From: an uncultured Gemmatimonadaceae bacterium
Lineage (GTDB): Bacteria; Gemmatimonadota; Gemmatimonadetes; Gemmatimonadales; Gemmatimonadaceae
NCBI GenBank assembly: GCA_963781585.1
Contig: CAWAGQ010000006.1
Span: 160,001 to 224,000, forward strand
Direction of reading: 5' to 3'
DNA length: 64,000 nt
Positions 7,559-63,718 of this stretch are shown here, one piece after another. Under the pieces are notes generated by a model. The model ran no database searches, was not told the DNA's origin, and saw only the letters and a list, made by a program, of their open reading frames with translations. Position 1 is the stretch's first letter. The number at the start of each line of letters is the position of its first letter. The position numbers and the translations under genes are program-made.

Positions 7559-9841
7559 ATGAGATACCTCCCTGTCCACGGCCTCATCGCCGCCCTGCTG
7601 TTCTCCGCAGCGGCTGCGATGCACCCTGTCACAGCCACCGCATCCACCACCCGGTCGCGGTCGGAGGCCGCTGCCGATTCGGTTCACGGCATGGTTACCG
7701 ACAGCGCCAGTCGCCCCGTTGCCGGCGCTCGCGTGGCGCTGGTGGAGCTCGCCCGCGCCGTGGTCACCGACAGCGCCGGTGGCTTCGCGTTTTCCGACGT
7801 GCCGTCAGGGCGCTACACCATCACGATCTCGGCGCAGGGATTCGGGTTGTTCGGTGAGCAGGTCATGGTCGCGGGCGGCATGTCGCCGCTCCGCTTCACG
7901 CTGGCTGTGGGGGAACGCAACCTGCCGCGCGTGACGGTCACCGCGGTGCGGGCGGCGTCGCCGCTCGCCAATTCACCCCTCCCGGTTTCTGAAGTCGGGA
8001 GCGAGGATTTGCGGCGCGAGCATTCGGTGAGCCTGGCGCGCGCCATCGAGCGGGTGCCGGGGGTCCGGAGCCTAACGACGGGCGAGCAGATCGGGAAACC
8101 GGTGATCCGGGGACTGAGCGGCGCGCGGGTGCTGGTGCTCGACAACGGGCTTCGGCTGGAGGACTACAGCTGGAGCGACGAGGACGGCCCGTCGGTGGAA
8201 TCGCGTCTGGCGGACCGGATCGAGATCGTCCGGGGCCCGGCGAGCCTGATGTACGGGAGCGACGCGATCGGCGGCGTGGTCAACGTCGTCCCCGCCGAGC
8301 TGCCTTCGGCGGTCGGCACCGACGGCTTCAAACGCATGGCGGGAGAGCTGTACTTCGCGTCGAACAATGGAGAGTTCGGAACGGCGCTGCGGGCCGAGGG
8401 CGCGAGTGGACGGTGGGGGTGGCGCGGGTTCGTGGTCGGTCGGAGCGCCGAAGATCTCAACACTCCGGACGGCAAGCTCGACAATACAGGATTCGTGGCG
8501 GTCAACGGAGAACTGGCTATCGGGCACCACGGAAGCCGCGGTTCGTCGATGCTGCGGTACGTCCGCTATGGCGGTGAATTCAAGCTCCTCGAGGCCGGTG
8601 GACCGCCTCCCGGAGAGGAGGAGGGGGCAGGGCCGGAGCGAGTGCTGAGCGACGATCGCGTGCAGTTCGCGGGCAAGTACGTGCTCGGCGGGATGCGTCT
8701 GGATGTCCAGGGGCAATGGCAGCGGCACGATCTGATCGAGAAGTCCGACGATCTGGTTCCGCTCGGCGGCCCGCCTGACGCGACGGTCTTCGACCTGCTC
8801 CTCAACACGTTTACCGGAGAGGTGGTGGCCCATCGCGATTTCGGTACGGGGTGGACGGGGACGGCAGGCGCGTCCGGCGAGATTCAGTCCAACGACTCCC
8901 GGGGCATCGAGCCGATCATCCCCGATGCGAACCTTCTGGCGGGCGGCGCGTTCGCCTTCGCCGAGTACACGGCATCGCGATGGAACCTGCTGGGCGGGAT
9001 TCGCGCCGACGCACGCCGGCTGTCGAACGACGCCAACGCCGACCTGAATCGTCCCGCCGCCACGCGGAAGAGCGGAGCGGTGAGCGCGGATCTCGGGGCG
9101 GTATTCCGACTCGGCGGCGGCTTTGCGCTGACGGCGAACGCGGGCCGGGCGTGGCGCGCTCCCACCCTGTTCGAGCTCTACGCCAACGGCCCGCGCATCG
9201 GCGAGAACCGGTTCGAGATCGGCGACTCCAATCTCGACCCCGAAGCGAGCTTCAACGTGGATGGGGGACTGCGGTGGGAGCACGACGAGGTCAGCGCCGA
9301 AGTGTCGGTGTTCCACGACGACATCCAGAAGTTCATCTTCATCGCGCCGACGGGGACGCAAGCGAGTTCGCTGCCGGTCTATCGCTACGAGCACGCCGAC
9401 GCGACGCTGACGGGCGCTGAGGCCGCCGCGGAAGTGCAGGCGACCGCCAACGTGACGCTGCGTGCGCGACATGATTTCGTGCGCGGAACGAACAACGAGA
9501 CCAACTCGCCTCTTCCGCTCGTTCCGCCGGCACGATCCGGTGGGGAGGTGGAGCTGCACGGGGAGAAGCTCGGTGGGTTCTCGAGTCCCTCCCTTGGCGT
9601 GGAGGTCGAATACAACGCCAGGCAGACGAGACTGAGCTCGTTCGATACACCCACGGATGGGTACACGCTCGTGAATCTCGAGGCAGGATTCGGCGCCGCC
9701 CTGGGCGGGCATCAATTGCGGTTGGCGCTGCGCGTCCGCAACCTGACCGACGAGGCGTACCGGTCGTATCTCAGCCGGTACAAGGAGTTCGCGCTGGATC
9801 CGGGTCGCAACATCGTGGTGCGGGTATCGACCGGGTTCTGA
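7559..9841 (+). CDS. TonB-dependent receptor with N-terminal carboxypeptidase-regulatory-like domain
   Basis: Signal peptide, plug motifs KPVIRGL and IEIVRGPASLMYGSDAIGGVVN, RAPTLFELYANG, C-terminal GRN...GF. Confidence 0.9.
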   Translation: MRYLPVHGLIAALLFSAAAAMHPVTATASTTRSRSEAAADSVHGMVTDSASRPVAGARVALVELARAVVTDSAGGFAFSDVPSGRYTITISAQGFGLFGEQVMVAGGMSPLRFTLAVGERNLPRVTVTAVRAASPLANSPLPVSEVGSEDLRREHSVSLARAIERVPGVRSLTTGEQIGKPVIRGLSGARVLVLDNGLRLEDYSWSDEDGPSVESRLADRIEIVRGPASLMYGSDAIGGVVNVVPAELPSAVGTDGFKRMAGELYFASNNGEFGTALRAEGASGRWGWRGFVVGRSAEDLNTPDGKLDNTGFVAVNGELAIGHHGSRGSSMLRYVRYGGEFKLLEAGGPPPGEEEGAGPERVLSDDRVQFAGKYVLGGMRLDVQGQWQRHDLIEKSDDLVPLGGPPDATVFDLLLNTFTGEVVAHRDFGTGWTGTAGASGEIQSNDSRGIEPIIPDANLLAGGAFAFAEYTASRWNLLGGIRADARRLSNDANADLNRPAATRKSGAVSADLGAVFRLGGGFALTANAGRAWRAPTLFELYANGPRIGENRFEIGDSNLDPEASFNVDGGLRWEHDEVSAEVSVFHDDIQKFIFIAPTGTQASSLPVYRYEHADATLTGAEAAAEVQATANVTLRARHDFVRGTNNETNSPLPLVPPARSGGEVELHGEKLGGFSSPSLGVEVEYNARQTRLSSFDTPTDGYTLVNLEAGFGAALGGHQLRLALRVRNLTDEAYRSYLSRYKEFALDPGRNIVVRVSTGF

Positions 9842-9891
9842 CGGGGCGCCTCTGCCGGTCGAGACACGCGCCGCCCGTATATTTGCGGGCA

Positions 9892-11070
9892 ATGATCCCG
9901 GTCCGGCGTGTGTTGGTGCCGCTCGCGATGGCGTGGCTGGCGTCGTGCCGCTCCGGCGCGAGCGTGCGCGCCCCCGCGGCGAATCTGCTCGTGGTCGCCG
10001 GCGACTCCACGTTCTGGATCGCCAATGACACGGGTGCGTTCGACGTCCGCCGATCGCCGATCCTGCTGGCACACTACGGCGGCCGCTTCTACGAGATCTA
10101 CGTCACCGATGACGATCGGTCATTCTACGACGCGGTCATCGTCGGGCAGCGCATCTATCGACGCGATCTGATCGGCGGCGATTCGGCCGCGGTGTTCGAG
10201 GATCCGACCCTCGCCGAACTCGCGGCGTCATACGCATCGGCCCATCCTGGCCAGCGGCCGCTGGCGCCGGACGAAGACGGCGCCGACGATCCGATGATGA
10301 GCTCCACGACTGAAACGGACGTCGTGGACGTACTCGGCCCATTCGCGACCTTCGAACAGCGCGCGGACATGGACCTGCCGGACGGCCGCGAGTTGCTCCA
10401 CACGTCGCGCTCCGTGGTCGATCTGCGCTCGTCGCGAGTCATTGCGCTGGGCGACCTGGTCACGGACAGCGTGCGCCGTCGGATCCTGCGCGACGAGCAG
10501 CGCGCGCTCGCCGCGACGTTTGACTCGGTGCGGAAGTCGAGCGATCCGCGAGCGCGCGTGGCGGCCAGGATGCTGCGCGGCTTCATCGAGGATGACTCCA
10601 GCTTCTCGCTCGTCCTGGTCGACACGGGTCCCGCCGTGGCGTTCCTGGTCCCCGGGCAGGGGGAGCGCGCCGGCGGCTACGCCCTCCCGTTGCCGCCCAT
10701 CCGTATTCCGGCCGGAGAGTGGTGGAACGAGGTGCGCGCCACGCTGCCGTCGCACCGGGGGCCCAACGAGGATGCCTGGGCCGGCCCAGTCTACGACGTG
10801 GTGGTGCGCTACGACTCCGCGGCGGACGCCGCGTTGCTCACCTTGCGTGATGCCAGCGGGAAGGAGTTCCTCGCCATGCCCCTCCCCGCTCCGGTGACGC
10901 GCGTGTACCGCCTGGATAGTCTGGCGCGCGACACCTTGACCATCAACGCGCTCAGACGCGCGTTCGATGAGGCCGCACCCGACGCGAGCGATACGACCAG
11001 GACCATCACATCTATCCGCCCCTCCGGTATCATGCCCGTCTCCAACCGGATACGGCGGCGCCCACCCTGA
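9892..11070 (+). CDS. Hypothetical lipoprotein
   Basis: Lipobox-like WLASC after a hydrophobic stretch; GC3-rich codon pattern. Confidence 0.65.
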   Translation: MIPVRRVLVPLAMAWLASCRSGASVRAPAANLLVVAGDSTFWIANDTGAFDVRRSPILLAHYGGRFYEIYVTDDDRSFYDAVIVGQRIYRRDLIGGDSAAVFEDPTLAELAASYASAHPGQRPLAPDEDGADDPMMSSTTETDVVDVLGPFATFEQRADMDLPDGRELLHTSRSVVDLRSSRVIALGDLVTDSVRRRILRDEQRALAATFDSVRKSSDPRARVAARMLRGFIEDDSSFSLVLVDTGPAVAFLVPGQGERAGGYALPLPPIRIPAGEWWNEVRATLPSHRGPNEDAWAGPVYDVVVRYDSAADAALLTLRDASGKEFLAMPLPAPVTRVYRLDSLARDTLTINALRRAFDEAAPDASDTTRTITSIRPSGIMPVSNRIRRRPP

Positions 11071-11132
11071 CCCGTCATTGCTCTTCGAATCGATGCTCGT
11101 CGCCCACCGGTCCCTCATCACCCCCCCGCCAC

Positions 11133-17965: not shown

Positions 17966-19249
17966 TCATCTCCCCACGTCTGCCCGCAGCGCCGCAAAGA
18001 GTCGCGCCAGGTACCGGTTCTCTTCCGCCTCCACGCGCCCGCTGAAATCGCTGAACGCCGAAGCGCCCAAACGCCCGATCCAGCGCATGATCGCGCTCTC
18101 GTTGACGATCAGGTGCAGGGTGCGGAAGCTGAGTGTCTGCGGCGGGATGTCGTCGCGCACCCCCAGGCGGAGTTCGAGGCCGCGGCCCTGAAACGGGCGA
18201 CGCAGCGGTGAGCGAATGAGCTTGTCGACGGCCAGCGGGAAGTGCCACGCCGGTTCGCGGCGGAATCGGAACATCCACGCGCGCAGGTGCTCGCCGCGCT
18301 CGATGGTGAAGTCGCCCACGAGGTCGGTGTAGCCGATGCGGTAGAAGCTGTGCTTGAACGAGATGTCGCTCTCGACGAGCAGGGAATCGGGAAGCGAGCG
18401 CGCAGGGTCAGCGAGGGCGACGAGAGTGCCGGCGCGGGCGCGGAGCCTGACGACCACGTGGCCGTCGCGGCCGGCGAGCTCGAAGTAGTGCGCTCCCTGG
18501 TGGTCGGCGACGGTGAACCGGTAGACGGTCGGGACGGCATACTTGTCGAGATAGGCGGCGAACGCGGGCAGCGTGCCGCGGATACTGTCGGGGCGGATGG
18601 CTATGCCTAACGTGAGCACGGTGGAACCGTCGTCCGCCACGACCGTGCGGAGGGAGTCGATCGCGAACAGGTGCGAGAGGTATCGCGCGGTGCTCGGGAA
18701 CGCGGTCACGGAGGCGGCCTGCGCCTGGTCGCTGGACAGTCCCGAGGCGCCGGTGAACGTGGCGACGATCGCGGCCGCGATGCCGTCGGGGGTCACGTGG
18801 CCGATGGCATGGTCGACAGTCGTTTCCCACTCGTAGTCGTTGTGGCCGAGCGATCGGAGCCGGAGGAAGTGCCGCTGCTCGCTCAGCTCCGTCGGGTAGG
18901 GGGCGTTGGTGCCGTTGGTGAAGCGGTATCGGCCGTTGGCGCGTGTGCCGTGCAGGTACATCACGCGCGAGCTGTCGCCGTTCGAGACGATGGGCCAGAT
19001 GGCGGTGTCGGCGTAGAGGTGCGAGGGTATGAGCGCTTCGCGCGCCATCTCCATTCGGGCGCTATCGAAATGCGGTTCGCGCTCGGCGTCGGTGAAGCGG
19101 AACTGGAATGCGGCGAAGGTGTCGTCGGCGTTGGCGCGCGCCGATGCAGGGTTCGCGCCGAACGCATCGATTGTATCGCGGCAGGCCGACGCGGCGGCGA
19201 GCGCGATGAGGAACGCGAGTGGGATGTAGCGGATGGGCCTGCGGCGCAA
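17966..19249 (-). CDS. Hypothetical lipoprotein
   Basis: Basic N-terminus, hydrophobic core and ASAC lipobox; 427-aa ORF with coding-like codon bias. Confidence 0.7.
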   Translation of the reverse strand: MRRRPIRYIPLAFLIALAAASACRDTIDAFGANPASARANADDTFAAFQFRFTDAEREPHFDSARMEMAREALIPSHLYADTAIWPIVSNGDSSRVMYLHGTRANGRYRFTNGTNAPYPTELSEQRHFLRLRSLGHNDYEWETTVDHAIGHVTPDGIAAAIVATFTGASGLSSDQAQAASVTAFPSTARYLSHLFAIDSLRTVVADDGSTVLTLGIAIRPDSIRGTLPAFAAYLDKYAVPTVYRFTVADHQGAHYFELAGRDGHVVVRLRARAGTLVALADPARSLPDSLLVESDISFKHSFYRIGYTDLVGDFTIERGEHLRAWMFRFRREPAWHFPLAVDKLIRSPLRRPFQGRGLELRLGVRDDIPPQTLSFRTLHLIVNESAIMRWIGRLGASAFSDFSGRVEAEENRYLARLFAALRADVGR

Positions 19250-21147: not shown

Positions 21148-21324
21148 CGGGCCGGGCCGCGAGCGGGTGCACCGCTACGCGACGGCCTTCGAGTAGCTTG
21201 CGGCATGTTGGGGTCGAGCGACGCCACTGACCACCACCTGCCCACGAACTGCAGCATGGGGGTGAAGGCGTTCGTCGGTATTCAACCAAGACCCGCGTCG
21301 ATCGGCATCCACTCGGAGCGCGCA

Positions 21325-22263
21325 ATGACCGGTATCGTCCGCACCTCACTCCTGCTCGCCGTTCTCACACCGATTGGTTTGCCTCGCGCACTTCGTGCGC
21401 AAACGCCCTACCCGACGCGCTGCGGGACGGGGATCCCGCGCAGCGAGCAATCGGGCTACGTCCCACTTCCCAGAGGCGACGTCTTCTGTCCGCTCGTCGC
21501 CGACCCGAAAGCCGCGACCTCGTTCGCGAGCTATCTGCATGAGCACTCCGACGCCACCACGCCCGACACGTCGATCAACATCGCGTCGGTCGGCATCGGC
21601 GACGCGTTCGGGCTGGGACGGTGGAACGGTGCGCGGCCGGGTGACGGGGTCGAGATCGCTCTCGCGGGCAGCGTGTTCGCCCAGTTCGACCTGAGCAGCG
21701 CGTCGTACGACCTGCTCAACGCCGACTACGTGATCGGGGTGCCGATCACGCTCCGGAGCGGCTGGTTCTCCACGCGCATTCGGGTCTATCACCAGAGCTC
21801 GCACCTCGGCGACGAGTATCTCCTCCGGGAACCGGCGAATCGACAGAATCGGGTGAACCTCTCCTTCGAATCGCTGGAATGGATCCTGTCGGCGGATGCC
21901 GCGGCACTGCGGCTGTACGGCGGAGGCGAGTACCTGTTCCACCGGTTCCCCAAGGATCTGGAATCCTACGTGGCGCACGGCGGCGCGGAACTGCGGCCGC
22001 AATTCCGCATCATCCCACTCGGTTCGTTAGGCGGATTCCGCCTGGTGGCGGCCACCGACCTCAAGGCGTCGCAGGAACACGACTGGAAACCGAGCGTGAG
22101 TGCCCGGGCGGGGCTGGAGTACGACCGGGCCGGACGCGCCGCGACCCCGGCCCGAAGGTGGGGCCTGTTCTTCGAGTACTACACGGGCCCGTCGCCGTAC
22201 GGGCAGTTCTACCGCACGAACGTCCACCACATGGGGGTGGGGATCCACTTCGGGCCGTCGTGA
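21325..22263 (+). CDS. DUF1207 family putative outer-membrane protein
   Basis: Signal peptide, PLVADPK, FAQFDL...LLNADY, YHQSSHLGDE, YYTGPSPYGQFY. Confidence 0.75.
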   Translation: MTGIVRTSLLLAVLTPIGLPRALRAQTPYPTRCGTGIPRSEQSGYVPLPRGDVFCPLVADPKAATSFASYLHEHSDATTPDTSINIASVGIGDAFGLGRWNGARPGDGVEIALAGSVFAQFDLSSASYDLLNADYVIGVPITLRSGWFSTRIRVYHQSSHLGDEYLLREPANRQNRVNLSFESLEWILSADAAALRLYGGGEYLFHRFPKDLESYVAHGGAELRPQFRIIPLGSLGGFRLVAATDLKASQEHDWKPSVSARAGLEYDRAGRAATPARRWGLFFEYYTGPSPYGQFYRTNVHHMGVGIHFGPS

Positions 22264-42341: not shown

Positions 42342-43229
42342 ATGACCAGCGCCATTGCGATTGCCACGTTAGGCTTCTTCCTCGGCATGCGGCACGCGAC
42401 CGACGCCGACCACGTGATCGCAGTGACCACGATCGTGGCGCGGCATCGGAGCCTGAAGAGCGCGGCCTGGATCGGCGCCGTGTGGGGGATCGGGCACACC
42501 GTCACGATCCTGGTGGTGGGCGGCGCGATCATTCTCTTCAGCTGGGTCATCCCGCCGCGTATCGGATTGTCGATGGAGCTGGCGGTCGGACTGATGCTGG
42601 TCGCGCTGGGCGTGATGAATCTCGGCGGGTTCTGGCAGCGGGTGCAGGAAGTACAGCCTGCGCCGGAGGCGCCGGCGCATGGGCACGCGGCCGCACCTCC
42701 GGCGCAGGCGCCGTCGTGTCCTGCCGTGGATCCCCGTGGGCACGCGCACGAGCTCCCGCACGTCCACTCCCATGCGCACCGCCACGGCGACTACATCCAC
42801 ACCCATGCGCACGAGCACGACCCCGAACGTCACCCGCATGATCCCGATCGAACGCCGTTGAGCCGCCTCGACCAGCGACTGGGATCCTTGCGCCTGTACC
42901 AGCTCGCGCGCCCGCTGGTTGTGGGCGTTGTGCATGGGCTGGCCGGGTCAGCCGCCATTGCCCTGCTGGTGCTCACCACCATCCGGAGCACGACCTGGGG
43001 CGTCGTGTATCTGCTCATCTTCGGGCTCGGCACCATCGCCGGCATGATGCTCGTCACCGCCGTGGTCAGCGTCCCGTTCGCCATGACCGGCGCCCAGTTC
43101 GGCCGCCTGAATCGGCAGCTCCGGATCGCATCCGGCGTGGTGAGTCTCGCCTTCGGACTGTTCATTGCCTGGCGGATCGGCATCGTCGGCGGGCTGTTCA
43201 CCGGCCATCCGCAGTGGACGCCGCGGTAG
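42342..43229 (+). CDS. High-affinity Ni/Co transporter (NiCoT/UreH-like) with His-rich loop
   Basis: GMRHATDADH signature, WGIGHT, HVHSHAHRHGDYIHTHAHEH, GVVHGLAGSAA. Confidence 0.88.
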   Translation: MTSAIAIATLGFFLGMRHATDADHVIAVTTIVARHRSLKSAAWIGAVWGIGHTVTILVVGGAIILFSWVIPPRIGLSMELAVGLMLVALGVMNLGGFWQRVQEVQPAPEAPAHGHAAAPPAQAPSCPAVDPRGHAHELPHVHSHAHRHGDYIHTHAHEHDPERHPHDPDRTPLSRLDQRLGSLRLYQLARPLVVGVVHGLAGSAAIALLVLTTIRSTTWGVVYLLIFGLGTIAGMMLVTAVVSVPFAMTGAQFGRLNRQLRIASGVVSLAFGLFIAWRIGIVGGLFTGHPQWTPR

Positions 43230-47065: not shown

Positions 47066-49111
47066 GTGCGTAATCGTTCCACTCGATCCCCGTTTTCCAT
47101 GGGGCCCACGATCGCAGCCCTGACGATGAGTCTGGCGCACCCGCTGGCCGGGCAGACGCGCCCGCTGCCGCTACTCGAACCGTCCGTCAGCGTACAAACG
47201 GGCCGACCGCTGCCGGGGCCCGTTTACGAAACCTCCGCCTTCACTCGCGCCGTGGAGCGGCGAACACGCACGCGCAACGGTGCCCCCGGTGAGGCGTCGT
47301 GGACCCAGTATGCCCGCTACTATATAGATGCGCGTCTGGATCCGGCGGCGACGCGAGTGTCGGGCAGCGAACGCGTCGTCTATCTCAACAATTCGCACGA
47401 CACGCTGACGCGGGTCGCGGTTCACTTGAGACAGAACGCGTTCGCGCCCGGAAACGCGCGCCGTACGGCTGTGCCCACCACAGGCGGCATGACGCTGAAC
47501 CGGGTGGCGGTGCGCGGAACCACCGTTGCGCCGCCGTCCGGCGCACCGAACAGCAGTTCGTCGCGCACCGCCGCGTCGAGGGACAGCTACCTCGTCGACG
47601 GAACGGTCATGTGGATCACGCTGGCCACGCCCCTGATGCCGCGCGACAGCATTCGGCTCGACTTCAGCTGGTCGTACTCGCCGGCGCCGGCTCCATCCGA
47701 CGGGCGCGAGGGACGCGAGTCAGACGTCTTCTTCATGGGCTACTGGTATCCGCAAGTCGCCGTGTACGACGACGTGAATGGGTGGGTCGCCGATCAGTAT
47801 CTGCTGCAGGCCGAGTTCTACATGGACCCGGCGGACTACGACGTGCGCCTGCAGGTGCCGCGCGAGTGGGTCGTGGGCGCTACCGGTCAGCTGCAGAACC
47901 CGGACTCGGTGCTGAGCAGCGTCACGCGCGCGCGGCTTGACGAGGCGCGGCGCACCGGGAGTGTGGTCCATGTGGTGACGCCTGGACCCGAAGCATCACG
48001 CGCGCTCGCCGGCACGGGTCCGTCGCTCACCTGGCACTTCGTGGCGCGCGACGTGCGCGATTTCGCCTGGGGCGCGGGCAACGCCTACGTGTGGGACGCG
48101 ACCCGCGCAATCATCACCGGCGCCGGCGGCCGTCCCGACACCGTCACCATCAACAGCTTCTATCGGCGTCACCCGCCGGCGTCAGCCTGGGCGACGGGCG
48201 GCGCGCGCTACACCCGCGACGCCATCGAGCAGCTCTCCGCGTACCTCTGGCCGTATCCGTGGCCCCAGATGACCTCGATGGAGGGGATCCTCGACGGCGG
48301 CGGCATGGAGTATCCGATGATGACCATCATGCAGCCCTGGGCGGACACGCTCTCGCTGGCGGGCGACCTGATGCACGAGACGGGACACATGTGGTTCCCG
48401 ATGCAGGTGGGATCGAACGAGACCCGGTATCCGTGGATGGACGAGGGCTTCACGCAGTTCGACGATGCCCAGGGAATGCGCGTGCTGTACGGCGAGCCGC
48501 GTAGTGGCGGGCGGCCTAACGATTCTGAACCTGGACAGCGGCGCCTCTATCTGGACGCGGCGCGCGCCGGCAACGATCAGCGGCTGATGGTACCGGGCGA
48601 TCTGTATCCCGCCGAGTGGTACTTCATCATGTACTACGACAAGACCGCGCAGGTGCTGGCGGCGCTGCGCGGGATGCTGGGAGAGGAGACGTTTCATCGC
48701 GCGTTCCGCGAGTATGGCCACCGCTGGATCGACAAGCACCCGTACCCGTACGACTTCTTCAACGCGATCGCCGATGTCTCCGGGCGCGACCTCTCCTGGT
48801 TCTGGACGACCTGGTTCTACGAGCCGTGGTCGCTGGATCAGGCGATCGCATCGGTGTCCACCGTGGGCGATTCCACGGCGATTACGATCGAGGATCGCGG
48901 GCTCGCGCCGATGCCCGTGCGCGTCGCCATCACCCGCGCCGACGGTACCGTACAGCGACTGGATCTGCCGGTGGACATCTGGTTGACCGGAGCGCGCCGC
49001 CACGAGGTGCGCGTGGCCGGCTCCCCAGCCATTACACGCATCGAGATCGATCCCGACGCGGCCTTCCCCGACATCGAGCGCCGCAACCAGGCTTGGACAG
49101 TGCCCCGATAG
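47066..49111 (+). CDS. M1 family aminopeptidase, secreted
   Basis: GGMEYP exopeptidase motif, HETGH...WMDEG (HExxH-18-E); SD GAGGAG before GTG. Confidence 0.9.
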   Translation: MRNRSTRSPFSMGPTIAALTMSLAHPLAGQTRPLPLLEPSVSVQTGRPLPGPVYETSAFTRAVERRTRTRNGAPGEASWTQYARYYIDARLDPAATRVSGSERVVYLNNSHDTLTRVAVHLRQNAFAPGNARRTAVPTTGGMTLNRVAVRGTTVAPPSGAPNSSSSRTAASRDSYLVDGTVMWITLATPLMPRDSIRLDFSWSYSPAPAPSDGREGRESDVFFMGYWYPQVAVYDDVNGWVADQYLLQAEFYMDPADYDVRLQVPREWVVGATGQLQNPDSVLSSVTRARLDEARRTGSVVHVVTPGPEASRALAGTGPSLTWHFVARDVRDFAWGAGNAYVWDATRAIITGAGGRPDTVTINSFYRRHPPASAWATGGARYTRDAIEQLSAYLWPYPWPQMTSMEGILDGGGMEYPMMTIMQPWADTLSLAGDLMHETGHMWFPMQVGSNETRYPWMDEGFTQFDDAQGMRVLYGEPRSGGRPNDSEPGQRRLYLDAARAGNDQRLMVPGDLYPAEWYFIMYYDKTAQVLAALRGMLGEETFHRAFREYGHRWIDKHPYPYDFFNAIADVSGRDLSWFWTTWFYEPWSLDQAIASVSTVGDSTAITIEDRGLAPMPVRVAITRADGTVQRLDLPVDIWLTGARRHEVRVAGSPAITRIEIDPDAAFPDIERRNQAWTVPR

Positions 49112-51728: not shown

Positions 51729-52989
51729 ATGCTCGCGGCTCAGGTGGCGGCGCCCCTGGCAGCGCAAGGACGCTACTTCCCGCCGCGCGGCGAATGGGAG
51801 AAGCGATCACCCGCGCAGGTCGGCCTGAACCCGGCTGCCGTGGACTCCGCGGTCGCGATCGCTCTCCGCAGCGAATCGACGGCGCCGCGCGATCAGCTCG
51901 AGATGCAGCGCGGATCGTTCGGAAGGGAACCGCACGGCGAAGGGATCGGTCCGTTCAAGCCCCGCGGTGGCCCAGCGGGACTGATCGTGCGCCACGGTTA
52001 CATCGTGGCCGAGTGGGGCGATCCCGACCGCGTCGATCTCACGCACAGCGTCACCAAGAGCTTTCTCTCCACCACCGTCGGGCTCGCGTACGACCGCAAG
52101 TTGATCCGCGACGTGCACGACCCAGTGCGCCAGTACATGTCGCCGATCGTGGCGCTAAAGGGACCGCCGGGCAACGGCGCCGCCCTGGTGCCGATGCCGG
52201 CCGACGTGATGGGCGCCAACGTGAGCGACAGCGCCGCGCCGCCGCCGCCGGCGGGCGTAGCGTTCGACGCCTTCGAGGTGCTCCAGCCGTTCGAATCGGA
52301 CCACAATCGCAAGATCACCTGGGATGAGATGCTGCGGCAGACGAGCGAGTGGCAGGGGACGCTCTGGGGGAAGCCCGACTGGGCCGATCGGCCGCGCGGC
52401 GATATCGAGCAGTGGAAGCGCCGCGAACGTCCCGAGCCCGGCACCGTGTACACATACAACGACGTGCGGGTGAACCTGCTCGCGCTCGCGGCGCTCTATG
52501 GTGTGGCGCCGTCCGCTGCCGCAGGTGCTGCGCGACTCGGTGATGGATCCGATCGGCGCGTCGAACACCTGGCGGTGGTCCGGCTACGACAACTCGTGGG
52601 TGGTGCTCGACGGCCAGCTGGTGCAGTCGGTGACCGGGGGCGGGCACTGGGGCGGCGGCATGTGGATCAGCGCGCGCGACATGGCGCGCTTCGGGTACCT
52701 CACGCTGAACAGGGGACGTTGGGGGAACCGGCAGGTGCTCTCCGAGGCGTGGATCCGCATGGCGACCACGCCCGGCGTGAACCCGGGCTACGGCTTCTGC
52801 AACTATTTCCTGAACACCGGGCGGCGCGCGCTGCCGGACGCTCCGGAGCAGGCGTTCTACCACCTGGGGAACGGCAACAACATCATCTACGTCGATCCGG
52901 TGAACGACCTGGTGGTGGTGGCGCGGTGGATCAACAGCACGCGCTCCCTGGATGCGATGCTGAAGGCGCTGCTGACCGGTGCGCGTTAG
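51729..52989 (+). pseudogene. Serine hydrolase (class C beta-lactamase/NylB-like) with one +1 frameshift (possibly a sequencing error)
   Basis: HSVTKS (SxxK) and YND in frame 1; VWRRPLP...GGGHWGGG..ISARDMARFG in frame 2; extra G at 52500/52501; start uncertain. Confidence 0.8.
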
Positions 52990-53217
52990 GCGCCGGACCG
53001 ACGCGAGGCCGGGGTGCCGCGCCTCCAGGCGCAGGGCCGCCAGCGCGAACCCGTCCTGCTCACGGATCAGCAGCGCGCGCCGGAGACCGGGCCTAACGCG
53101 GACCGGAATGTGACGCCGGACACGATCCCGGTCTCCTGCGGCTGACGCTGTCGGCGACTCGACGCGCGGGTGCCGGTGTATCACCCGCGCCAGACAGTAC
53201 GCAAACCAGGAGGTCAC

Positions 53218-53859
53218 ATGCGGAAAGCAATCCCGGCCGCAATGATAGGCGGCCTGATGTTTGTAGCCTGCGCGCGTCAGGCGCGCATCGAGTCGGGCGG
53301 AGACGTCGATCTCAGCGCCACACCGCTCGACGCCCGCACGCTGCCAAGCGGGATCGCGGTGGACGTGCGTCTGGACAAGGAAATCGGCACCAAATCCAGC
53401 AGGGTGGGCGACCAGTTCAGCGCGACCGTCGAGCACGCCGTGGTCGCGCAGAACGGGGAGACCGTGGTGCCCGAGGGTGCCAGGGTCTACGGGACGGTGA
53501 CCGGGCTCGATAACTCCGAGCACGTCGGCGACCCAGCTGCCATCCGGATCGACTTCGATCACCTGAACATGCGGGGCAGGAACTATCCGTTCGAGGCCAA
53601 GGTGACGGCGACCAATCTGGCCACCCGCGGCCAGGACACGAGGAGCGAGACGCTCAAGAAGGCCGGCATCGGGGCCGCGGCGGGCGCCGCGATGGGGGCC
53701 ATTCTCACCGGCGGTGACCTCGACAAGATCCTGCTCGGCGGCGCGATCGGCGCCGCCGCCGGCACTGTTGTTTCGTTAGGCACGGGCGAAGTGGAGGGGG
53801 TCCTCCCGGCCGGCACCCACATGACGCTGCAGACCACCCGGACCATCGCGCTTCGTTAG
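53218..53859 (+). CDS. Hypothetical lipoprotein with TrbI/VirB10-like beta domain and glycine zipper
   Basis: SD AGGAGG, FVAC lipobox, VGDQFSATV...VVPEGARV.G.V, GAAAGAAMGA..G / GGAIGAAAG. Confidence 0.7.
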   Translation: MRKAIPAAMIGGLMFVACARQARIESGGDVDLSATPLDARTLPSGIAVDVRLDKEIGTKSSRVGDQFSATVEHAVVAQNGETVVPEGARVYGTVTGLDNSEHVGDPAAIRIDFDHLNMRGRNYPFEAKVTATNLATRGQDTRSETLKKAGIGAAAGAAMGAILTGGDLDKILLGGAIGAAAGTVVSLGTGEVEGVLPAGTHMTLQTTRTIALR

Positions 53860-53880
53860 GCACGCCGGTCCCTGAGGCAA

Positions 53881-55525: not shown

Positions 55526-55645
55526 AGCGAGCCTGCCGCCTTGCCCGAACTCACGCCCTGAAACGGAGAGAAGGTCTGTGCGCTCGCGTAGCGAGCGCGC
55601 GTCCGCAGGCCTACATTCTGCCGACGTGATCCATTGCACGGCGGG

Positions 55646-58600
55646 ATGAGCACCGACCTGCGCGAGCAGCTCCAGCAGACGCTGGGCAGCGCGTACACGC
55701 TCGAGCGTGAGCTCGGCGGCGGCGGCATGTCGCGCGTCTTCGTGGCAGAGGAGACCAGGCTTCACCGCAAAGTCGTGGTGAAAGTGTTGTCCCCCGAACT
55801 CGCGGCCGGCGTCAGCGCCGAGCGCTTCGAGCGCGAGATCCAGCTCGCGGCCTCCCTGCAGCAGGCGAACATCGTGCCTCTGCTCTCGGCCGGCGAGACG
55901 AATGGACTGCCGTACTTCACCATGCCGTTCGTTGAAGGGGAATCGCTGCGAGTCCGGCTGGGGAAAGGGCCGCTGAGCGTGACCGAGGTGGTCGGCGTGT
56001 TGCGCGATGTGTCGCGGGCGCTGAGCTACGCGCACGAGCGTGGCGTGGTGCACCGGGACATCAAACCCGACAACGTGTTGCTCTCGCATGGCACGGCGGT
56101 GGTGACGGACTTCGGCATCGCCAAGGCGCTGTCCGCGTCGCGCACGAAGAGCGGCGACGCCACGCTCACGCAGCTCGGAACGTCCATCGGCACGCCGGCC
56201 TACATGTCGCCGGAGCAGGCGGCCGGGGAGACGGAGATCGATCACCGGGCCGACATCTACGCCTTCGGGTGCATGGCGTATGAGTTGCTCGCCGGCCATC
56301 CGCCTTTCCATGGACGGACCCCCACGCGCGTGCTCGCCGCCCAGATGAGCGAAACGCCGCCGCCGGTGAACGATCTGCGCCCCGACACGCCGGTGGTCCT
56401 CGGCGAGCTGGTCATGCGCTGTCTGGAGAAGGATCCCGGGTCGCGGCCGCAGTCGGCGAACGACCTCGCGCGGACGCTCGACAACGTCACCAGCGGCGCG
56501 GGCATGCCATCGATGCCCGCCGTGCTGCTGGGAGGGCGGGGCATGCTCCGCCGCGCCCTGCTCGTCTATGCGGCCGCCTTCATTGGCGTAGCGGTCGTGG
56601 CCAAGGCGGCGATCATCGCCATCGGACTGCCGTCGTGGGTATTCCCGGGGGCGCTCATCGTCATGGCGCTGGGCCTGCCGGTGATCCTGTTCACGGCCTA
56701 CGTGCACCGGGCCACGCGACGGGCCCTCACCGCCACACCGACGCTCACGCCGCGGGGCACCCAGCCGGCGGCGGCGGGAACGATGATGACCATCGCGCTC
56801 AAGGCGAGCCCGCACCTGAGCTGGCGCCGCGCCGCGTTCGGCGGACTGTATGCGTTAGGCGCTTTCGTGCTCCTGGTCGGGGCCTACATGGTGCTCCGGA
56901 TGTTCGGGATCGGACCGGAGGGCTCGCTGCTCGCCGCGGGCAAGCTGTCGAGCCGGGACGAGGTGCTGATCGCCGATTTCGCCGTGCCGGGATCGGACTC
57001 CTCCCTCAGTACCGCGCTCACCCAGGCCCTCCGGTCGCAGCTCGAACAATCGACGGCCGTCTCGGTGATGCCGGTCAGCTCGGTGACCGCGGCGCTCGAG
57101 GAATCGCGTCGCCCGGCGAACACGCGGATCGACCTCGACGTCGCCAAGGACATCGGACTGCGGCGGGGCGTGAAGGCGATCGTGGCGGCCGATGCGACGC
57201 AGCTCCCCGGCGGCGGCTACCTGGTGACGACGAAGCTCGTGAACACCCGCACCGGCGACGTGCTCGCGAGCTATCAGGAGACGGCGCAGGACGCGGCCGG
57301 GCTCCTTGGCGCGATCGACGCCGCGACGCGCAAACTGCGGGCGCGGATCGGCGAGTCGCTCAAGACCATCCAGGCCGAGGCACCGCTCGAGCAGGCGACG
57401 ACGTCCTCGTTGGAGGCGCTCCGCAAGTACGCCGAGGGGGTGCGCGCCAATGACGTGGAGGGCGACTACCTGAAGGCGGTGACGGTGCTGCGCGAAGCGA
57501 TCGCAATCGACAGCACCTTCGGCATCGCCTATCGCAAACTTGCGGTGGCGCTCAGCAATGCTCTGGAGCCGCCCAGTCTGCAGCGTGCGGCAATCGAGAG
57601 AGCCTACCAGCTCCGGGACCGGATGTCGCCGCGCGAACGCGATCTGGCGATGGGTGTCTACTTCAACACCCGGCCCTACGTCGATCGCGCCAAGGCGATC
57701 GAGGCATACAGTGACGCGCTGCGACTCGATCCGCGGTCGTACACCGCCAGCGGAAATCTCGGGCAGCTCGCGGCGTCGAAACGGGACTGGGAGGGGGCCC
57801 TCCGATATGGGCGGCTGACGGCGGAGCTGCTCCCGATGTCGTCGTTCGGCTACTGGTACGTGGTCGACGCGCTGGCGTCGACCGGGCGGTTTGCCGAGTC
57901 AGCCGCCATGCTCGATACGCTCGCCCGCGTGGACAGTACGAGCAGTACGTGGGTCCTGGCCAACGTTTCGCTGCTGGTGGCTCGACAGGACTACGATTCA
58001 CTGCGCGCGCTGCTCCGACGCCAAGTCACGGCCCGGGATCGCGACGCGCGTCTGGCAGCGATGCAGAACCTGGCCAACGTTGCGGCGGTTCAGGGTCGTG
58101 TCGCCGAGGCGCGGCGCTGGCTCGACTCGCTCAATGCGGGCCTGCACCTCCGGACCCGGGCGGATTCGGCGACGGCGACGCTGGGCCAGGCGTTCTTTGC
58201 TGCGGCGTACGATCTCGACCGCCCCGGCGCGATCGCCATGACCGATCGCATCTCGTCGCCGGAGTACCTGGCCGGGATTCCCTTGCCAGACCGTCCGTAC
58301 CTCGGCATCGCCGCCGTGTATGCGCGCGCCGGCGACGCGACGCGAGCCCGCGCGATGCTGTCACGCTATGATGCGGAGGTGCGTGACAGCGCGCTGCTGC
58401 GGCAGGACGGGGCGACCCGGCACGGCGTCCTCGGGGAGGTGGCACTCGCCGAGCATCAGCCGGACGTCGCGATCCGGGAGTTCCGTCTGGCCGACGTGCA
58501 GTCCGACGGCGCACCCGATCCCTGTGCGGACTGCCTCGACCTCGACCTGGGGCGCGCCTACGATCTCGCGGGGAAGGCCGATTCGGCGATCGCGGCCTTC

Positions 58601-58834
58601 GATCGCTATGTGCACAGCCCCTTCAGCGGCCGCATCCTGACGGACCAGTACTTCCTTGGTCCGGTCGTGAAGCGGCTGGGAGAGCTGTATGAGGCGAAGG
58701 GGAATCGCCAACAGGCCATCTCATCGTACACGCGTTTCACCGATCTCTGGAAGAATGCGGATCCACTTCTGGAACCCATGGTGAGCGACGTCAGGCAGCG
58801 GATCGCACGGCTGTCCAGGGCTGAGGGGCGTTAG
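55646..58834 (+). CDS. Hanks-type Ser/Thr protein kinase with TM segments and C-terminal TPR region
   Basis: LGGGGMSRVF, VVVKVL, HRDIKPDN, DFG, GTPAYMSPEQ, DIYAFG; C-terminal WKNADP. Confidence 0.93.
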   Translation: MSTDLREQLQQTLGSAYTLERELGGGGMSRVFVAEETRLHRKVVVKVLSPELAAGVSAERFEREIQLAASLQQANIVPLLSAGETNGLPYFTMPFVEGESLRVRLGKGPLSVTEVVGVLRDVSRALSYAHERGVVHRDIKPDNVLLSHGTAVVTDFGIAKALSASRTKSGDATLTQLGTSIGTPAYMSPEQAAGETEIDHRADIYAFGCMAYELLAGHPPFHGRTPTRVLAAQMSETPPPVNDLRPDTPVVLGELVMRCLEKDPGSRPQSANDLARTLDNVTSGAGMPSMPAVLLGGRGMLRRALLVYAAAFIGVAVVAKAAIIAIGLPSWVFPGALIVMALGLPVILFTAYVHRATRRALTATPTLTPRGTQPAAAGTMMTIALKASPHLSWRRAAFGGLYALGAFVLLVGAYMVLRMFGIGPEGSLLAAGKLSSRDEVLIADFAVPGSDSSLSTALTQALRSQLEQSTAVSVMPVSSVTAALEESRRPANTRIDLDVAKDIGLRRGVKAIVAADATQLPGGGYLVTTKLVNTRTGDVLASYQETAQDAAGLLGAIDAATRKLRARIGESLKTIQAEAPLEQATTSSLEALRKYAEGVRANDVEGDYLKAVTVLREAIAIDSTFGIAYRKLAVALSNALEPPSLQRAAIERAYQLRDRMSPRERDLAMGVYFNTRPYVDRAKAIEAYSDALRLDPRSYTASGNLGQLAASKRDWEGALRYGRLTAELLPMSSFGYWYVVDALASTGRFAESAAMLDTLARVDSTSSTWVLANVSLLVARQDYDSLRALLRRQVTARDRDARLAAMQNLANVAAVQGRVAEARRWLDSLNAGLHLRTRADSATATLGQAFFAAAYDLDRPGAIAMTDRISSPEYLAGIPLPDRPYLGIAAVYARAGDATRARAMLSRYDAEVRDSALLRQDGATRHGVLGEVALAEHQPDVAIREFRLADVQSDGAPDPCADCLDLDLGRAYDLAGKADSAIAAFDRYVHSPFSGRILTDQYFLGPVVKRLGELYEAKGNRQQAISSYTRFTDLWKNADPLLEPMVSDVRQRIARLSRAEGR

Positions 58835-58946
58835 GCAGTACGCCTGCCTCCACCGCCGCGTTCGCCGTCGGGAAGAGTGGTCGACGCTCCGCGGTCGCAC
58901 GCACGTCCCCCGCTCACCCGAGGCGTTCGGCAACATACTCATTCAA

Positions 58947-59874: not shown

Positions 59875-62538
59875 CTACGTGGCGTCGGACAATACGGACG
59901 TCGGCGCCATCGTGGCCGCCCGACGCGCGGGCACCAGAGCCGCCGCAACGCCGGTCGCGATCAGCACCGCCACCACGAGCAGGTACGTCACTGGGTCCCG
60001 CTGCGTGATGCCGACCAGCAACGTGGACAGGATCCGCGACGACGCGAGAGCGGCTGGAATGCCGATCACGAGCCCGATCGCCACCACGCGCAGGCCATGC
60101 CGCAGCACGAGCCCCAGCACCTGCGCCTGCTGCGCACCGAGCGCCATCCGGATGCCGAGTTCGTGACGACGCCTTCCCACCACGTACGACACCACCGCGT
60201 ACACCCCGCTCACTGCCAGAAGGAGCGCGAGCGCCGCGAACAGGGTGAGGGCCCCCACCAGGGTGCGCTGCCTGACGAGAGACTTGTCGAGCTTGTCGCG
60301 CATGGTGCCGGGGTCGTAGACCGGCAGCTCCGGATCGAGCTCCTGGATCGCGTGCCGCATGGACCCGAGCAGTGTCGCCGGGTCGCCGTGGGTGTACACC
60401 GTGAAGCGCATGGAATTCACGTCGTCCGTCTTCCGGATCGCCTCCAGGGGAATGTACACGCCCGGACGCGGCGGCTGGTCGAGTCCGTAGTGCCGCTCAT
60501 CCGTCGTCACGCCGACGACGGTGCGCCAGTGGGCGGCGGTGTCCCCGCGGAAGCGGACCCGTTTCCCGATCGGATCGGTTCCGGTAGGCCAGAACCGCCG
60601 GACGAAGCTCTGGTTCACGACGATCGGCATGAACCCGTCCGGGTCGCCCTCGCGGTCGCGATAGAAGCGTCCGTGCACGAGCGGGGTGCCCATCGCCGCG
60701 AAGTAGCTGCCTGACGCGACGCGAAAGAGAATGACCGGATCGGGCTGTCCGGCGGCGAGCGGGGGTTGTCCCTCGGCCTCCATGAACCCGCCCCAGTGGC
60801 AGGTGAGCGGTGGGCAGCTGATGGCGCCGGCCGCGACGACGCCGGGGAGGGCCTTCAGTCGCTCCTGTACGGATTCGAAGAACGCCCGCTGTGCGAAGCC
60901 GTCCGCGTATTTCACCTTCGGCAACGCCACGCCGAAGCCGGCAACGCCGTCGACGCGGAAGCCGGTCTCCACACTCGTGAGGTTGCGGTAGCCGCGCACC
61001 AGCAGCCCGCCGCCCACCAGCAGCACGGCGGCGAGCGCCACTTCGATCGCGACCAGCGCATCGAGCAGCCGGCGCTGCGGCACCGACGCCGTGGTCCTCG
61101 TGCCGACCGACGACAGCGCAGCGCGCAGATCGAGCCGGCGCGCCTGCAGCGCCGGCACGAGCCCGAACAGAATGGCCGTCACCAGCACCACCGAGACCGC
61201 GAACCCCAGGCTGCGCGCATCGAGGGTAAAGCGTGCCCAGGCGGGAAGCTCGTTAGGCGCCGAGGCGACCAGGAGGCGCAATCCCCACCAGCCGAGCGCC
61301 ATGCCGGCGATCCCCGCTACCATGGCCAGGAGCAGGCTCTCGGTGAGCATCTGTCGTGCGACCCGCCTCCCGCTGGCGCCCAGCGCCATGCGGATTCCCA
61401 TCTCGGCGCGGCGAAAGACCGAGCGCGCGAGCATCGCACCGGCCACGTTCACGCAGGCGATGAGCAGCACCAGCACCACCGCCGCGCCCAGCGTGCGCCC
61501 CATCACGCGCATCTGCCCGACGTACTTCTCGCGGAGCGGCATGATGCGCGGCACCACCACGTGCGAGGAATCGCGCTGTCGCCAGATAATGTCCTGCGCC
61601 TGGTCGAGATCCGTGTGCGCCGCCTCGATGGTCACGCCGGGGTTGAGGCGCGCGACGCCATCATAGGCGTACGACTGCCCTTGCTGATTGGGCTTCTCGC
61701 CAAGCGGCGTCCACAGCTTCACCGAGCCCGGGAACTCGGCGGCCGGCGGCATCACGCCGATGATCGTGGTGGACACGCTGTTGATGCGGATCGTGCGGCC
61801 GACGACATCGCGCGCACCGGCGAAACGCGACTGCCAGAGCCCGTAGCCGATCACCGCGACCGCGGGAGGATCTGGTCGATCCTCGTCCTTCGTGAACGTT
61901 CGCCCGAGCAGAGGATGGAGGCCTAGCGCGTCGGGCAGATCGTACGTGATCCTCGCGCCGTCGATTCGCTCGGCCGAAGTCCCATCGGAGACATTGAACT
62001 GCGTCTCATCGAAGAGCCCCATGGCAGCGAACGACGTGGTGTGCTCACGCCAGGCGAGGAAATCGTCGTAATTGATGCCAGTGTAGTCCAGGTTCCACTT
62101 CGGCGCTTCTTCGTTGAGGTACACGAGACGTTCAGGTTGCGGAAACGCCAGAGGACGGAAGAAGAGACCGTCCAGGAGGGCGAAGACCGTGGAGTTGACC
62201 GCCACCGCCAGCGTGAGCGTGAGGAGGATCATCGCGGTCGCGCCCTTCTGGCGGGAGAAGGCGCGCACGGCGAAGCGGAGGTCGGACAGGAAGGACTGCA
62301 TGGAGCGCTCCCGTGGTCGCGGCAGGTGCCGGCGGCGCCAGTGTTCGTAGGGTGCGTGTCGCACCACGTCCCAGGTGATCGCCATCGCCGTGGCGCAGAA
62401 CGCCACGAAGCCGCGTCGGCGCGCGCTGTCGAGCTCCTGCCTGACGAGGTCGACCATCTCGTCCTCGTGCTGGAGTCGGAAGCCCTCCGGAAGGAGACGG
62501 ATCAGGATCCGGTAGAATCGCAGGGGCAGGCTCCTCAC
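59875..62538 (-). CDS. ADOP-type duplicated ABC permease
   Basis: LLIACVNVA, RRAEMGIRMALGA, RRHELGIRMALGA, PARRA; GTGA overlap with the padR stop. Confidence 0.92.
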   Translation of the reverse strand: MRSLPLRFYRILIRLLPEGFRLQHEDEMVDLVRQELDSARRRGFVAFCATAMAITWDVVRHAPYEHWRRRHLPRPRERSMQSFLSDLRFAVRAFSRQKGATAMILLTLTLAVAVNSTVFALLDGLFFRPLAFPQPERLVYLNEEAPKWNLDYTGINYDDFLAWREHTTSFAAMGLFDETQFNVSDGTSAERIDGARITYDLPDALGLHPLLGRTFTKDEDRPDPPAVAVIGYGLWQSRFAGARDVVGRTIRINSVSTTIIGVMPPAAEFPGSVKLWTPLGEKPNQQGQSYAYDGVARLNPGVTIEAAHTDLDQAQDIIWRQRDSSHVVVPRIMPLREKYVGQMRVMGRTLGAAVVLVLLIACVNVAGAMLARSVFRRAEMGIRMALGASGRRVARQMLTESLLLAMVAGIAGMALGWWGLRLLVASAPNELPAWARFTLDARSLGFAVSVVLVTAILFGLVPALQARRLDLRAALSSVGTRTTASVPQRRLLDALVAIEVALAAVLLVGGGLLVRGYRNLTSVETGFRVDGVAGFGVALPKVKYADGFAQRAFFESVQERLKALPGVVAAGAISCPPLTCHWGGFMEAEGQPPLAAGQPDPVILFRVASGSYFAAMGTPLVHGRFYRDREGDPDGFMPIVVNQSFVRRFWPTGTDPIGKRVRFRGDTAAHWRTVVGVTTDERHYGLDQPPRPGVYIPLEAIRKTDDVNSMRFTVYTHGDPATLLGSMRHAIQELDPELPVYDPGTMRDKLDKSLVRQRTLVGALTLFAALALLLAVSGVYAVVSYVVGRRRHELGIRMALGAQQAQVLGLVLRHGLRVVAIGLVIGIPAALASSRILSTLLVGITQRDPVTYLLVVAVLIATGVAAALVPARRAATMAPTSVLSDAT

Positions 62539-62864: not shown

Positions 62865-62886
62865 GGATGGCTGGTGAAGTCGGCAG

Positions 62887-62917
62887 CTACTATATCATTT
62901 GATATAATAGAGCGCAA
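62887..62917 (-). promoter_or_regulatory. Promoter and palindromic operator of padR-3
   Basis: Minus strand TTGCGC (62917-62912)-17-TATAGT (62894-62889); palindrome CTAcTATATCA-TT-TGATATAaTAG. Confidence 0.75.
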
Positions 62918-63229
62918 GAAGGTTGCGTGGTGGCCGCTGGTCCGGGCCGAAGCGCCGACCGGCGGGCCCGGTGGGGGCCCGGTCTCGTGGCCGAGACGAG
63001 ACACGAAGTCCCCGCGTTGAGGGAGGCAGGCGCCTGGGACGCACCGATTGCCTGGCCGTCCAGTGCGCGTCGCGGCCGCGCTAGCGGAGGTGCGTGGGAC
63101 CAGCCGACGCACCGGCTGTACCCTCGCGCTGCGTGTTGCTGTGGCGGATCATAGGTTGGAGCAGGCACTGCCACCCTCGCCGCGCGCGTGACCGGCACGT
63201 GCGGGGCGGTCATGGCGCAGGATGTGTTC

Positions 63230-63718
63230 ATGTCGCAGCATCATGTCCGACGTTCCCCGGTCCGTCGCAGAAGGGTGGCGATTGCCCTCGCAGTATTCGT
63301 TAGGCTGGGGATGACCGTGGCGTGCGGCGACCCGGCAGGACCGAATGCGCTTTTTCCCGCCGGGGCGGTCCGCGTGCTGCCCGTCCCCGCGGAATACCTC
63401 CAGTGGTGGATGGAGGTGGAAGGGTGCTCGGGCCTGGGCGGGGATGTGCGTCGGGTACGGTTCTATGTGATGCCCGACGTGTACGCCTGGTGGGCACAGG
63501 ACCTTGGGGCATATGTGATGGGAGGCTGGACCGCGCGGGGCAATCGCATCACCGTGGGCGCCTTCCTGAAAGACGACGCGGGCCTGGTCCGCCACGAGAT
63601 GTTGCATGCCCTGCTGCAGCGTGGCGATCATCCCGTCGTGTATTTCGTGAAGCGCTGTGGGCCGCTGCTGGCGTCCGCCAGGGATCCGCTGTTCGGTGCC
63701 GGTGCGGTCGTGCGCTGA
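63230..63718 (+). CDS. Hypothetical lipoprotein with HExxH motif (minimal zincin-like)
   Basis: TVAC lipobox-like motif, WW..VE.CSG, VRHEMLHALL..GDH; start uncertain. Confidence 0.6.
   Translation: MSQHHVRRSPVRRRRVAIALAVFVRLGMTVACGDPAGPNALFPAGAVRVLPVPAEYLQWWMEVEGCSGLGGDVRRVRFYVMPDVYAWWAQDLGAYVMGGWTARGNRITVGAFLKDDAGLVRHEMLHALLQRGDHPVVYFVKRCGPLLASARDPLFGAGAVVR

Follow-up and report, generated by a model that had tools for sequence, protein, structure and literature searches.

Why would a bacterial chromosome carry one octamer far more often than chance allows? The question was raised by a 64-kb stretch of DNA (the window, C6:160001-224000 of its own assembly, G000), in which a sequence-only reading had singled out CGTTAGGC, hereafter the word, as a candidate chromosome-wide DNA signal. 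All 16 exact copies listed there were found again at their positions, 11 on the + strand and 5 on the - strand, and dinucleotide-preserving shuffles of the window (n = 100) gave a mean of 1.01 copies and a maximum of 3. The GTTAGGC heptamers and the CGTTAGGN variants reported along with them are also present, except that the heptamer at 20434 lies on the - strand and reads as the reverse complement GCCTAAC; the GC content assumed for the expectation, 69%, compares with a measured 0.66-0.69. We asked how far this excess extends, at which level it is imposed, which genomes share it and what might read the word.

Excess, form and conservation of the word

The assembly G000 comprises 5.72 Mb in 17 contigs (93.5% complete, 7.2% contaminated), and its RpoB is nearest to those of Gemmatimonadaceae and Gemmatimonas metagenome-assembled genomes (MAGs), with up to 86% identity. 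It holds 1442 copies of CGTTAGGC, 724 on the + strand and 718 on the - strand, and the density of every contig lies within 0.19-0.34 per kb. An order-3 Markov model predicts only 50.6 copies, and the word ranks first among all 8-mers (28.5x, z = 196). A maximal-order Markov model did not flag it in G000 because the word's own 7-mers carry the excess, and such a model is therefore not a useful null. Gene figures were obtained from our own crude calls (3797 genes, 79% coding), and the class that we call intergenic includes missed genes. Synonymous shuffling within genes (20 runs) predicted 18.6 + 26.4 copies (sense + antisense) against 725 + 314 observed, that is 45 against 1039, and shuffling of codon order predicted 13.4 + 16.8 against the same observed numbers. 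These two shuffles exclude a codon or dicodon artefact, and the word stays in strong excess genome-wide under the order-3 model and in called genes under the codon-aware one.

The word is exactly 8 bp long and is asymmetric, not being its own reverse complement. Over the 1442 copies no flanking position exceeds 0.3 bit, and the 3-base periodicity of the flanks is due to the preferred reading frame only. Flanks this flat rule out a repeat family or mobile element, in agreement with the earlier description of a short motif. Some single-substitution variants are enriched, namely CGTTAGGT (5.4x), CGTTATGC (4.7x), TGTTAGGC (3.5x) and CGTCAGGC (3.5x, 1519 copies), and all three substitutions at word positions 2 and 7 are depleted, to 0.2-0.7x. 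This pattern fits the mutational decay of a selected or driven word.

Results showed that the word enters coding sequence in several frames. The main class is the sense frame xCG-TTA-GGC (689 of the 1442 sites), followed by antisense xxG-CCT-AAC-G (250 sites), antisense xGC-CTA-ACG (64) and sense xxC-GTT-AGG-C (36); another 96 sites straddle a gene end, mostly as its TAG or TAA stop, and 307 are intergenic. Among [A/S/P/T]-Leu-Gly tripeptides the word accounts for 15.5%, among Pro-Asn-[G-start codon] tripeptides for 24%, and it supplies 62 of the 1181 TAG stops and 48 of the 292 TAA stops. It had been described as supplying most of the TTA codons noticed in the window; the true share is about half, with 7 of 16 in the window's called genes and 689 of 1311 in those of the genome. 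Sense copies outnumber antisense copies (780 against 355). As the antisense Pro-Asn frame is used more per permissive tripeptide than the main sense frame (24% against 15.5%), the sense bias reflects coding opportunity, and an RNA-level signal is out. The share of permissive Ala/Ser/Pro/Thr-Leu-Gly sites that carry the word rises from 3% to 26% with the GC content of a gene's third codon positions (GC3), density falls 7-fold in low-GC3 genes, and it also increases with regional GC (Spearman 0.46, 278 bins). Word use that increases with GC3 and regional GC fits the expectation for a recombination-coupled process.

Copies also keep a distance from one another. Counts per 10 kb are Poisson-like in G000, and only 8 gaps are shorter than 100 bp, versus 35.5 expected from a Poisson process, with 68 versus 169 below 500 bp.

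We compared G000 with G001, a member of the same genus (244 kb aligned, 87.7% nucleotide identity). The word was kept at 56 of 69 G000 sites and at 56 of 64 G001 sites (81-88%), versus 43% for any 8-base window (p ~1e-10). The idea of a frame-independent signal imposed on coding sequence at the DNA level thus survived a codon-aware null and was borne out by retention at orthologous sites. Comparison with the word-poor G002, whose orthologues are 56% identical on average, gave a complementary picture: in the main class only 3 of 33 sites have an identical tripeptide in G002, as do 5 of 15 Pro-Asn and 4 of 5 Leu-Thr sites, so the word often changes the protein.

The gene rpoB provides examples of both effects. 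The Ala-Leu-Gly at alignment column 906 is spelled by the word in G000 and G009, the site at column 1575 in G000, G009 and the Verrucomicrobiae genome G319, and the Gly-Leu-Thr at column 629 in G009 and G030. The same residues use other codons in the word-poor genomes aligned, and also in the word-richer G015 and G016. At column 1575, G319 has Ser versus Ala in the seven other aligned genomes, a change that creates T-CGTTAGGC. As a separate observation, rpoB of G001 (G001:C8:72190-76827) is split by an in-frame TAG, which could reflect a fault in the assembly or a genuine interruption.

Distribution in two phyla and the attC core

We then considered 31 genomes (30 relatives and G000 itself), of which seven are clearly rich in the word: G000 (1442 copies), G001 (915), G005 (605), G009 (6360, or 1.25 per kb), G014 (460), G015 (516) and G030 (345). 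G013 and G016 are intermediate, and the other relatives have 6-65 copies. Density among word-rich genomes spans about 30-fold, from 37-54 per Mb to 1247 per Mb. In a class-wide set of 301 genomes from 129 genera, copies exceeded twice those of a reversed control word in only G000, G243 (709 copies) and G267 (452). The genomes G008, G045, G048, G053 and G163 are unpublished and enter as word-poor rows only. In G009 and G001 the word likewise has 8 bp, its flanks are weak in the same way, and the copies of G009 avoid each other at short range as well (11 close pairs versus 45 expected). In 400 kb of the word-poor G002 no comparable word was found, the top one being GGAATGAC (4.2x). This GGAATGAC, contained in GCCGGAATGACA-like words, has 74 copies in those 400 kb.

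A quick RpoB tree placed G000, G015 and G016 in one clade, G009 without a clear place and G030 among word-poor members of another family. The tree lacks G001, G002 and G014 (fragments below 1000 aa) and G005, G010 and G011 (no rpoB match); 8 of its 25 rows have branches some 5 changes per site long, most likely because the longest open reading frame (ORF) taken there is not rpoB, and the placements given here come from the 17-row part only.

A second phylum shares the hyper-abundance: in Verrucomicrobiae the word recurs as TCGTTAGGC, which had gone unnoticed in the sequence-only reading. Among RpoB loci outside Gemmatimonadota (L125-L191), a single one, from a Verrucomicrobiae MAG, held 18 copies in 23.8 kb; the other 66 together had 13 copies in 1.24 Mb. 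The genome of this MAG, G319 (3.8 Mb), contains 3272 copies, equal on both strands, and there the word is a 9-mer, with a preceding T in 92% of 157 copies. Some 20-kb stretches of G319 are empty of it. Of 151 genomes sampled from the order of G319, 15 have 150-2951 copies of TCGTTAGGC, versus at most 121 for the reversed control word.

The few copies in word-poor genomes turned out to be of another kind. They cluster on one strand, about every 550 bp, and these clusters are integron cassette arrays. At the Gemmatimonadota locus L001 (G021:C95:1-20000), 23 of 23 + strand copies end a conserved imperfect palindrome GCCTAAC...GTTAGGC of about 95 nt between short ORFs, and arrays in five Verrucomicrobiae genomes have the same look (28 sites). 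This is the structure of attC, with an inverse core RYYYAAC and a core GTTRRRY (PMC3053210), and integrons have been reported from both phyla (PMC8618304). Judged by its letters, the word is identical to the 3' core (GTTRRRY) of the attC sites in both phyla, a new observation that had likewise been missed. The large chromosomal cassette arrays of the two phyla (L001; L202-L209) have highly uniform attC sites of about 95-110 nt. On contig C80 of G021, cassettes and integrase fragments share a strand, which amounts to an inverted-integrase arrangement. A search of Rfam gave no match on three loci with cassette arrays.

Candidate readers of the word

To our knowledge, only two proteobacterial families are established users of sequence-specific self-tags in DNA uptake: the Neisseriaceae, with the DNA uptake sequence (DUS) that the minor pilin ComP reads, and the Pasteurellaceae, with the uptake signal sequence (USS). 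The excess, sharpness, strand symmetry, spacing, conservation, protein override and patchy dialects of the word match the DUS signature, and an uptake-type drive is therefore the explanation that we favour, tentatively and with somewhat less than even confidence: the word may be an uptake-sequence-like tag, spread by a transfer-coupled drive and served by a predicted reader. A protein would recognise CGTTAGGC on double-stranded DNA genome-wide, and word-bearing DNA would gain an advantage in transfer between cells and in recombination, as happens with DUS and USS. Such a transfer bias would act as a molecular drive, writing the word in one substitution at a time where the protein sequence tolerates it. 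The excess and its DNA-level nature, the conservation, symmetry, spacing and distribution were established here; the uptake or transfer step and its reader we infer from them. G000 does have an uptake toolkit, consisting of ComEC, a ComEA-like protein, DprA, two secretins and 17 type IV pilin-like ORFs.

Several observations weigh against an uptake tag. ComEC, the only toolkit gene searched in the relatives, is present in 30 of the 31 genomes, rich or poor, and thus does not discriminate. The ComP_DUS family (PF16732) passed its cut-off in one genome of the 31, the word-poor G011, and gave E = 0.006 in G000; sub-threshold matches were pilin-like and had no link with word abundance. A ComP-type receptor was therefore not found over cut-off in word-rich genomes. 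Around word sites aligned with G001 no divergence gradient was seen (identity 0.889 near, 0.878-0.892 far), and G319 lacks the short-range avoidance. The word is shorter than DUS or USS, and an arbitrary tag gives no reason to expect the same letters in two phyla or agreement with the attC core. Among the papers searched, none on competence in the lineage was found. None of them has the whole octamer or joins Gemmatimon* with a DNA uptake sequence, which agrees with the earlier remark that no description of the word in this lineage was known.

Nor do the word-free stretches show a depletion of the word from foreign DNA. Density does fall in low-GC3 genes, but where prophages had been expected, the five stretches scanned, taken from three of the largest deserts, are filled with housekeeping genes, and two origin regions were found among them. 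G000 has two homologous, syntenic origin regions (C5:270000-330000 and C8:280000-360000, 80-89% nucleotide identity); in both, dnaA and gidA lie where the GC skew switches. The bin thus probably includes a portion of a sister genome, which matches the 7.2% contamination. Both versions carry the word at its usual density, and the largest word-free stretches (C5:276646-324259 and C8:283862-357436) are found here, about 40-70 kb beside dnaA in which the word nearly vanishes. GC drops from 0.67 to 0.62 in these stretches, and their genes are housekeeping ones (arginine and histidine biosynthesis, murB, ispG, gidA). A third desert, C4:866742-905435, runs for 38.7 kb without a copy, where the longest gap expected by chance is about 29 kb; it contains recX, recA, ftsK, accBC, a gene for a PilT-like ATPase, lptD and tol-pal.

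Because the word equals the attC core and recurs in a second phylum, a reader of the integrase family, or one tuned to attC, stays in contention. An integron integrase or another tyrosine recombinase might read the word as an R-box half-site, the copies being landing, decoy or titration sites, or the result of conversion in aborted attC x genome exchanges. We consider this rather unlikely. Every array copy described above is the extended 3' core of an attC site, a reader conserved across phyla would naturally give two integron-carrying phyla the same word, and both G000 (C7:185858-186859) and G319 have an intact IntI. In four of the five Verrucomicrobiae array genomes, a T precedes the word in 18 of 20 attC sites, as in the 9-mer dialect of that order; in the fifth, G320, an A does so in 8 of 8. 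The Gemmatimonadota sites behave differently, with C before the word in 20 of 23 attC sites versus C as the rarest base (0.12) at the dispersed copies of G000.

Other evidence against the integrase is its distribution. IntI passed the family cut-off in 18 of the 31 relatives without relation to word abundance: it was found in the word-poor G002, G003, G004, G006 and G011, but G005, G009 (fragments only), G013, G015 and G016, all richer in the word, had no match over the cut-off. The word-poor G320 has IntI as well. This missing co-occurrence rejects the integrase as sole cause. We know of no integrase reaction that writes an R box into its target. The dispersed copies have flat flanks, and no attC palindrome (RYYYAAC...GTTRRRY, about 57-141 nt) shows in the flank profile of the 1442 copies. 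Only 8 successive -/+ pairs lie less than 200 bp apart; of these, six were folded and a few look attC-like (e.g. C13:335129). Hairpins of this kind explain at most some tens of copies. Moreover, the known genomic insertion sites of cassettes require just GWT (bioRxiv 10.1101/2022.09.11.507474). No relevant paper joining GTTAGGC with integrons was found.

A tyrosine-recombinase gene of about 302 aa is present in G000 in three copies (C7:172353-174475, C7:182952-185074 and C13:309021-309851), both C7 copies being followed by a 390-aa ORF and each of the three genes directly by a copy of the word. The three-copy unit is probably an insertion element.

The two lines could also be joined. The word would then be no arbitrary tag: some soil Gemmatimonadaceae and Verrucomicrobiae may carry a reader tuned to the attC core, either an uptake receptor or another protein of transfer or recombination, for example a relative of the integrase, so that cassette-bearing DNA would be taken in or acted on by preference. 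Such a bias might have written the core thousands of times into the chromosomes of these bacteria, independently in the two phyla or through transfer of the reader between them. In Vibrio cholerae, natural transformation feeds cassettes to the chromosomal integron (PMC12614218). We regard this combination as speculative and not a likely explanation.

Alternatively, the word may be the site of a nucleoid-associated or chromosome-maintenance protein, kept by weak selection without any transfer drive. Even short-range spacing, conservation and a similar density on all contigs agree with this proposal, and the scarcity of copies in the lower-GC DNA beside dnaA in two related origin regions, over about 40 kb on C5 and 50 kb on C8, could reflect domain organisation. 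On the other hand, a density spread of about 30-fold and close relatives without the word would be odd for a housekeeping function, and no candidate protein is known. A nucleoid protein is thus unlikely as the reader.

A mobile methyltransferase coupled to very-short-patch-like repair would correct near-cognate sites to the word, an origin of the kind that has been proposed for the highly iterated palindrome 1 (HIP1) of cyanobacteria. The patchy cross-phylum distribution fits a horizontally mobile system, and transition variants such as CGTCAGGC are indeed enriched. However, a patch-repair enzyme fixes one mismatch position, while all eight positions of the word are equally sharp, and short-range avoidance is not expected from such repair. 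These points make a methyltransferase-repair origin quite improbable.

Finally, a Chi-like site or one like the FtsK-orienting polar sequences (KOPS), guiding recombinational repair or FtsK and put forward in the sequence-only reading, is barely tenable: the word is asymmetric, has eight letters and occurs about once every 4 kb, close to the density of Chi in E. coli, and G000 has an FtsK with its gamma domain, but the polarity is missing. Among 852 sites with a clear GC skew (590 of the 1442, in weak-skew regions, were set aside) leading and lagging orientations were 456:396 overall (53.5% leading) and 82:87 in the intergenic class (48.5% leading), and the main genic class was 60% leading versus 61% of coding bases, so that the overall share comes from gene orientation and no Chi- or KOPS-like polarity is left. 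In addition, RecC had no match in G000 (93.5% complete) and no AddAB-sized nuclease was found there, PDDEXK_1 giving two weak matches only, in ORFs of 557 and 576 aa.

Copies in the window and comparison with known systems

The window illustrates the frames seen genome-wide. Seven of its copies take the sense frame xCG-TTA-GGC: 18605..18612 (-) in gene 17966-19249(-), 22025..22032 (+) in gene 21205-22263(+), 34468..34475 (+) and 35707..35714 (+) in the MacB/FtsX permease gene 33306-35972(+), 42367..42374 (+) in gene 42303-43229(+), 53774..53781 (+) in gene 53170-53859(+) and 56853..56860 (+) in the Ser/Thr kinase-TPR gene 55634-58834(+). The copy at 63298..63305 (+) is in the sense frame xxC-GTT-AGG-C of the called ORF 63188-63718(+). 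Four copies are antisense, at 8070..8077 (-) inside gene 7481-9841(+) as xGC-CTA-ACG, and in the Pro-Asn frame at 35114..35121 (-) in the same permease gene 33306-35972(+) (xxG-CCT-AAC-G), at 48514..48521 (-) in the M1-peptidase-domain gene 47066-49111(+) and at 61251..61258 (+) in the MacB/FtsX permease gene 59875-62649(-). As had been pointed out, three called genes end in CGT-TAG-GC, the word giving the TAG stop at 52984..52991 (+), at 53854..53861 (+) for gene 53170-53859 and at 58829..58836 (+) for the kinase-TPR gene 55634-58834. The copy at 53091..53098 (-) lies outside called genes.

Three paralogous MacB/FtsX-type ABC permease genes (about 890-920 aa) are found in the 64 kb, at 14689-17361, 33306-35972 and 59875-62649. 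The window also contains a tandem heptamer array, (GGCCAWA)n, at 5078-5140, directly after a gene ending at 5077. The related AGGCCAAA/TTTGGCCT has 331 copies on both strands and ranks second in G000 among over-represented word families (11.9x, order-3); it is near the top in the sister genome G001 too, and 173 of 255 tallied places are outside called genes. The (GGCCAWA)n / AGGCCAAA family resembles short tandemly repeated repetitive (STRR) sequences.

An uptake-like population-genetic signature thus marks many uncultured soil genomes in two further phyla, written by a word that overrides codon usage, occupying half of all TTA codons, and even alters RpoB residues. If the reader is an uptake receptor, sequence-biased transformation would extend to abundant soil phyla and would be tied to the integron cassette pool; if it is something else, a new genome-wide DNA-reading system would be at work. 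As both phyla have rich and poor genomes, phylogenetic profiling offers a direct way to find the gene of the reader, and word density helps to separate contigs of word-rich and word-poor genomes within a bin.

Among known systems, Chi (GCTGGTGG, RecBCD) and KOPS (GGGNAGGG, FtsK) resemble the word as asymmetric 8-mers with kilobase spacing, but both are polar to replication, which the word is not, and no RecBCD was found in G000. HIP1 (GCGATCGC) of cyanobacteria is likewise a hyper-abundant octamer of patchy occurrence, spread by substitution in coding and non-coding DNA; unlike the word, it is palindromic. With the R' box of integron attC sites (GTTRRRY, bound by IntI) the letters are identical, and arrays in both phyla end in CGTTAGGC, whereas the dispersed copies lack the R''/L''/L' palindrome, sit in frame in conserved genes such as rpoB and do not follow IntI presence in number. 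In comparison with DUS and USS, the word is found in other phyla, is a different one of 8-9 bp with the same core in two phyla, has no ComP-family receptor over cut-off, and its word-free stretches are housekeeping and not mobile. With these uptake tags it shares the form of a short asymmetric word present in hundreds to thousands of copies equally on both strands, the use of the least costly frames and of tolerant positions in genes, conservation between species, spacing more even than chance, and lineage dialects.

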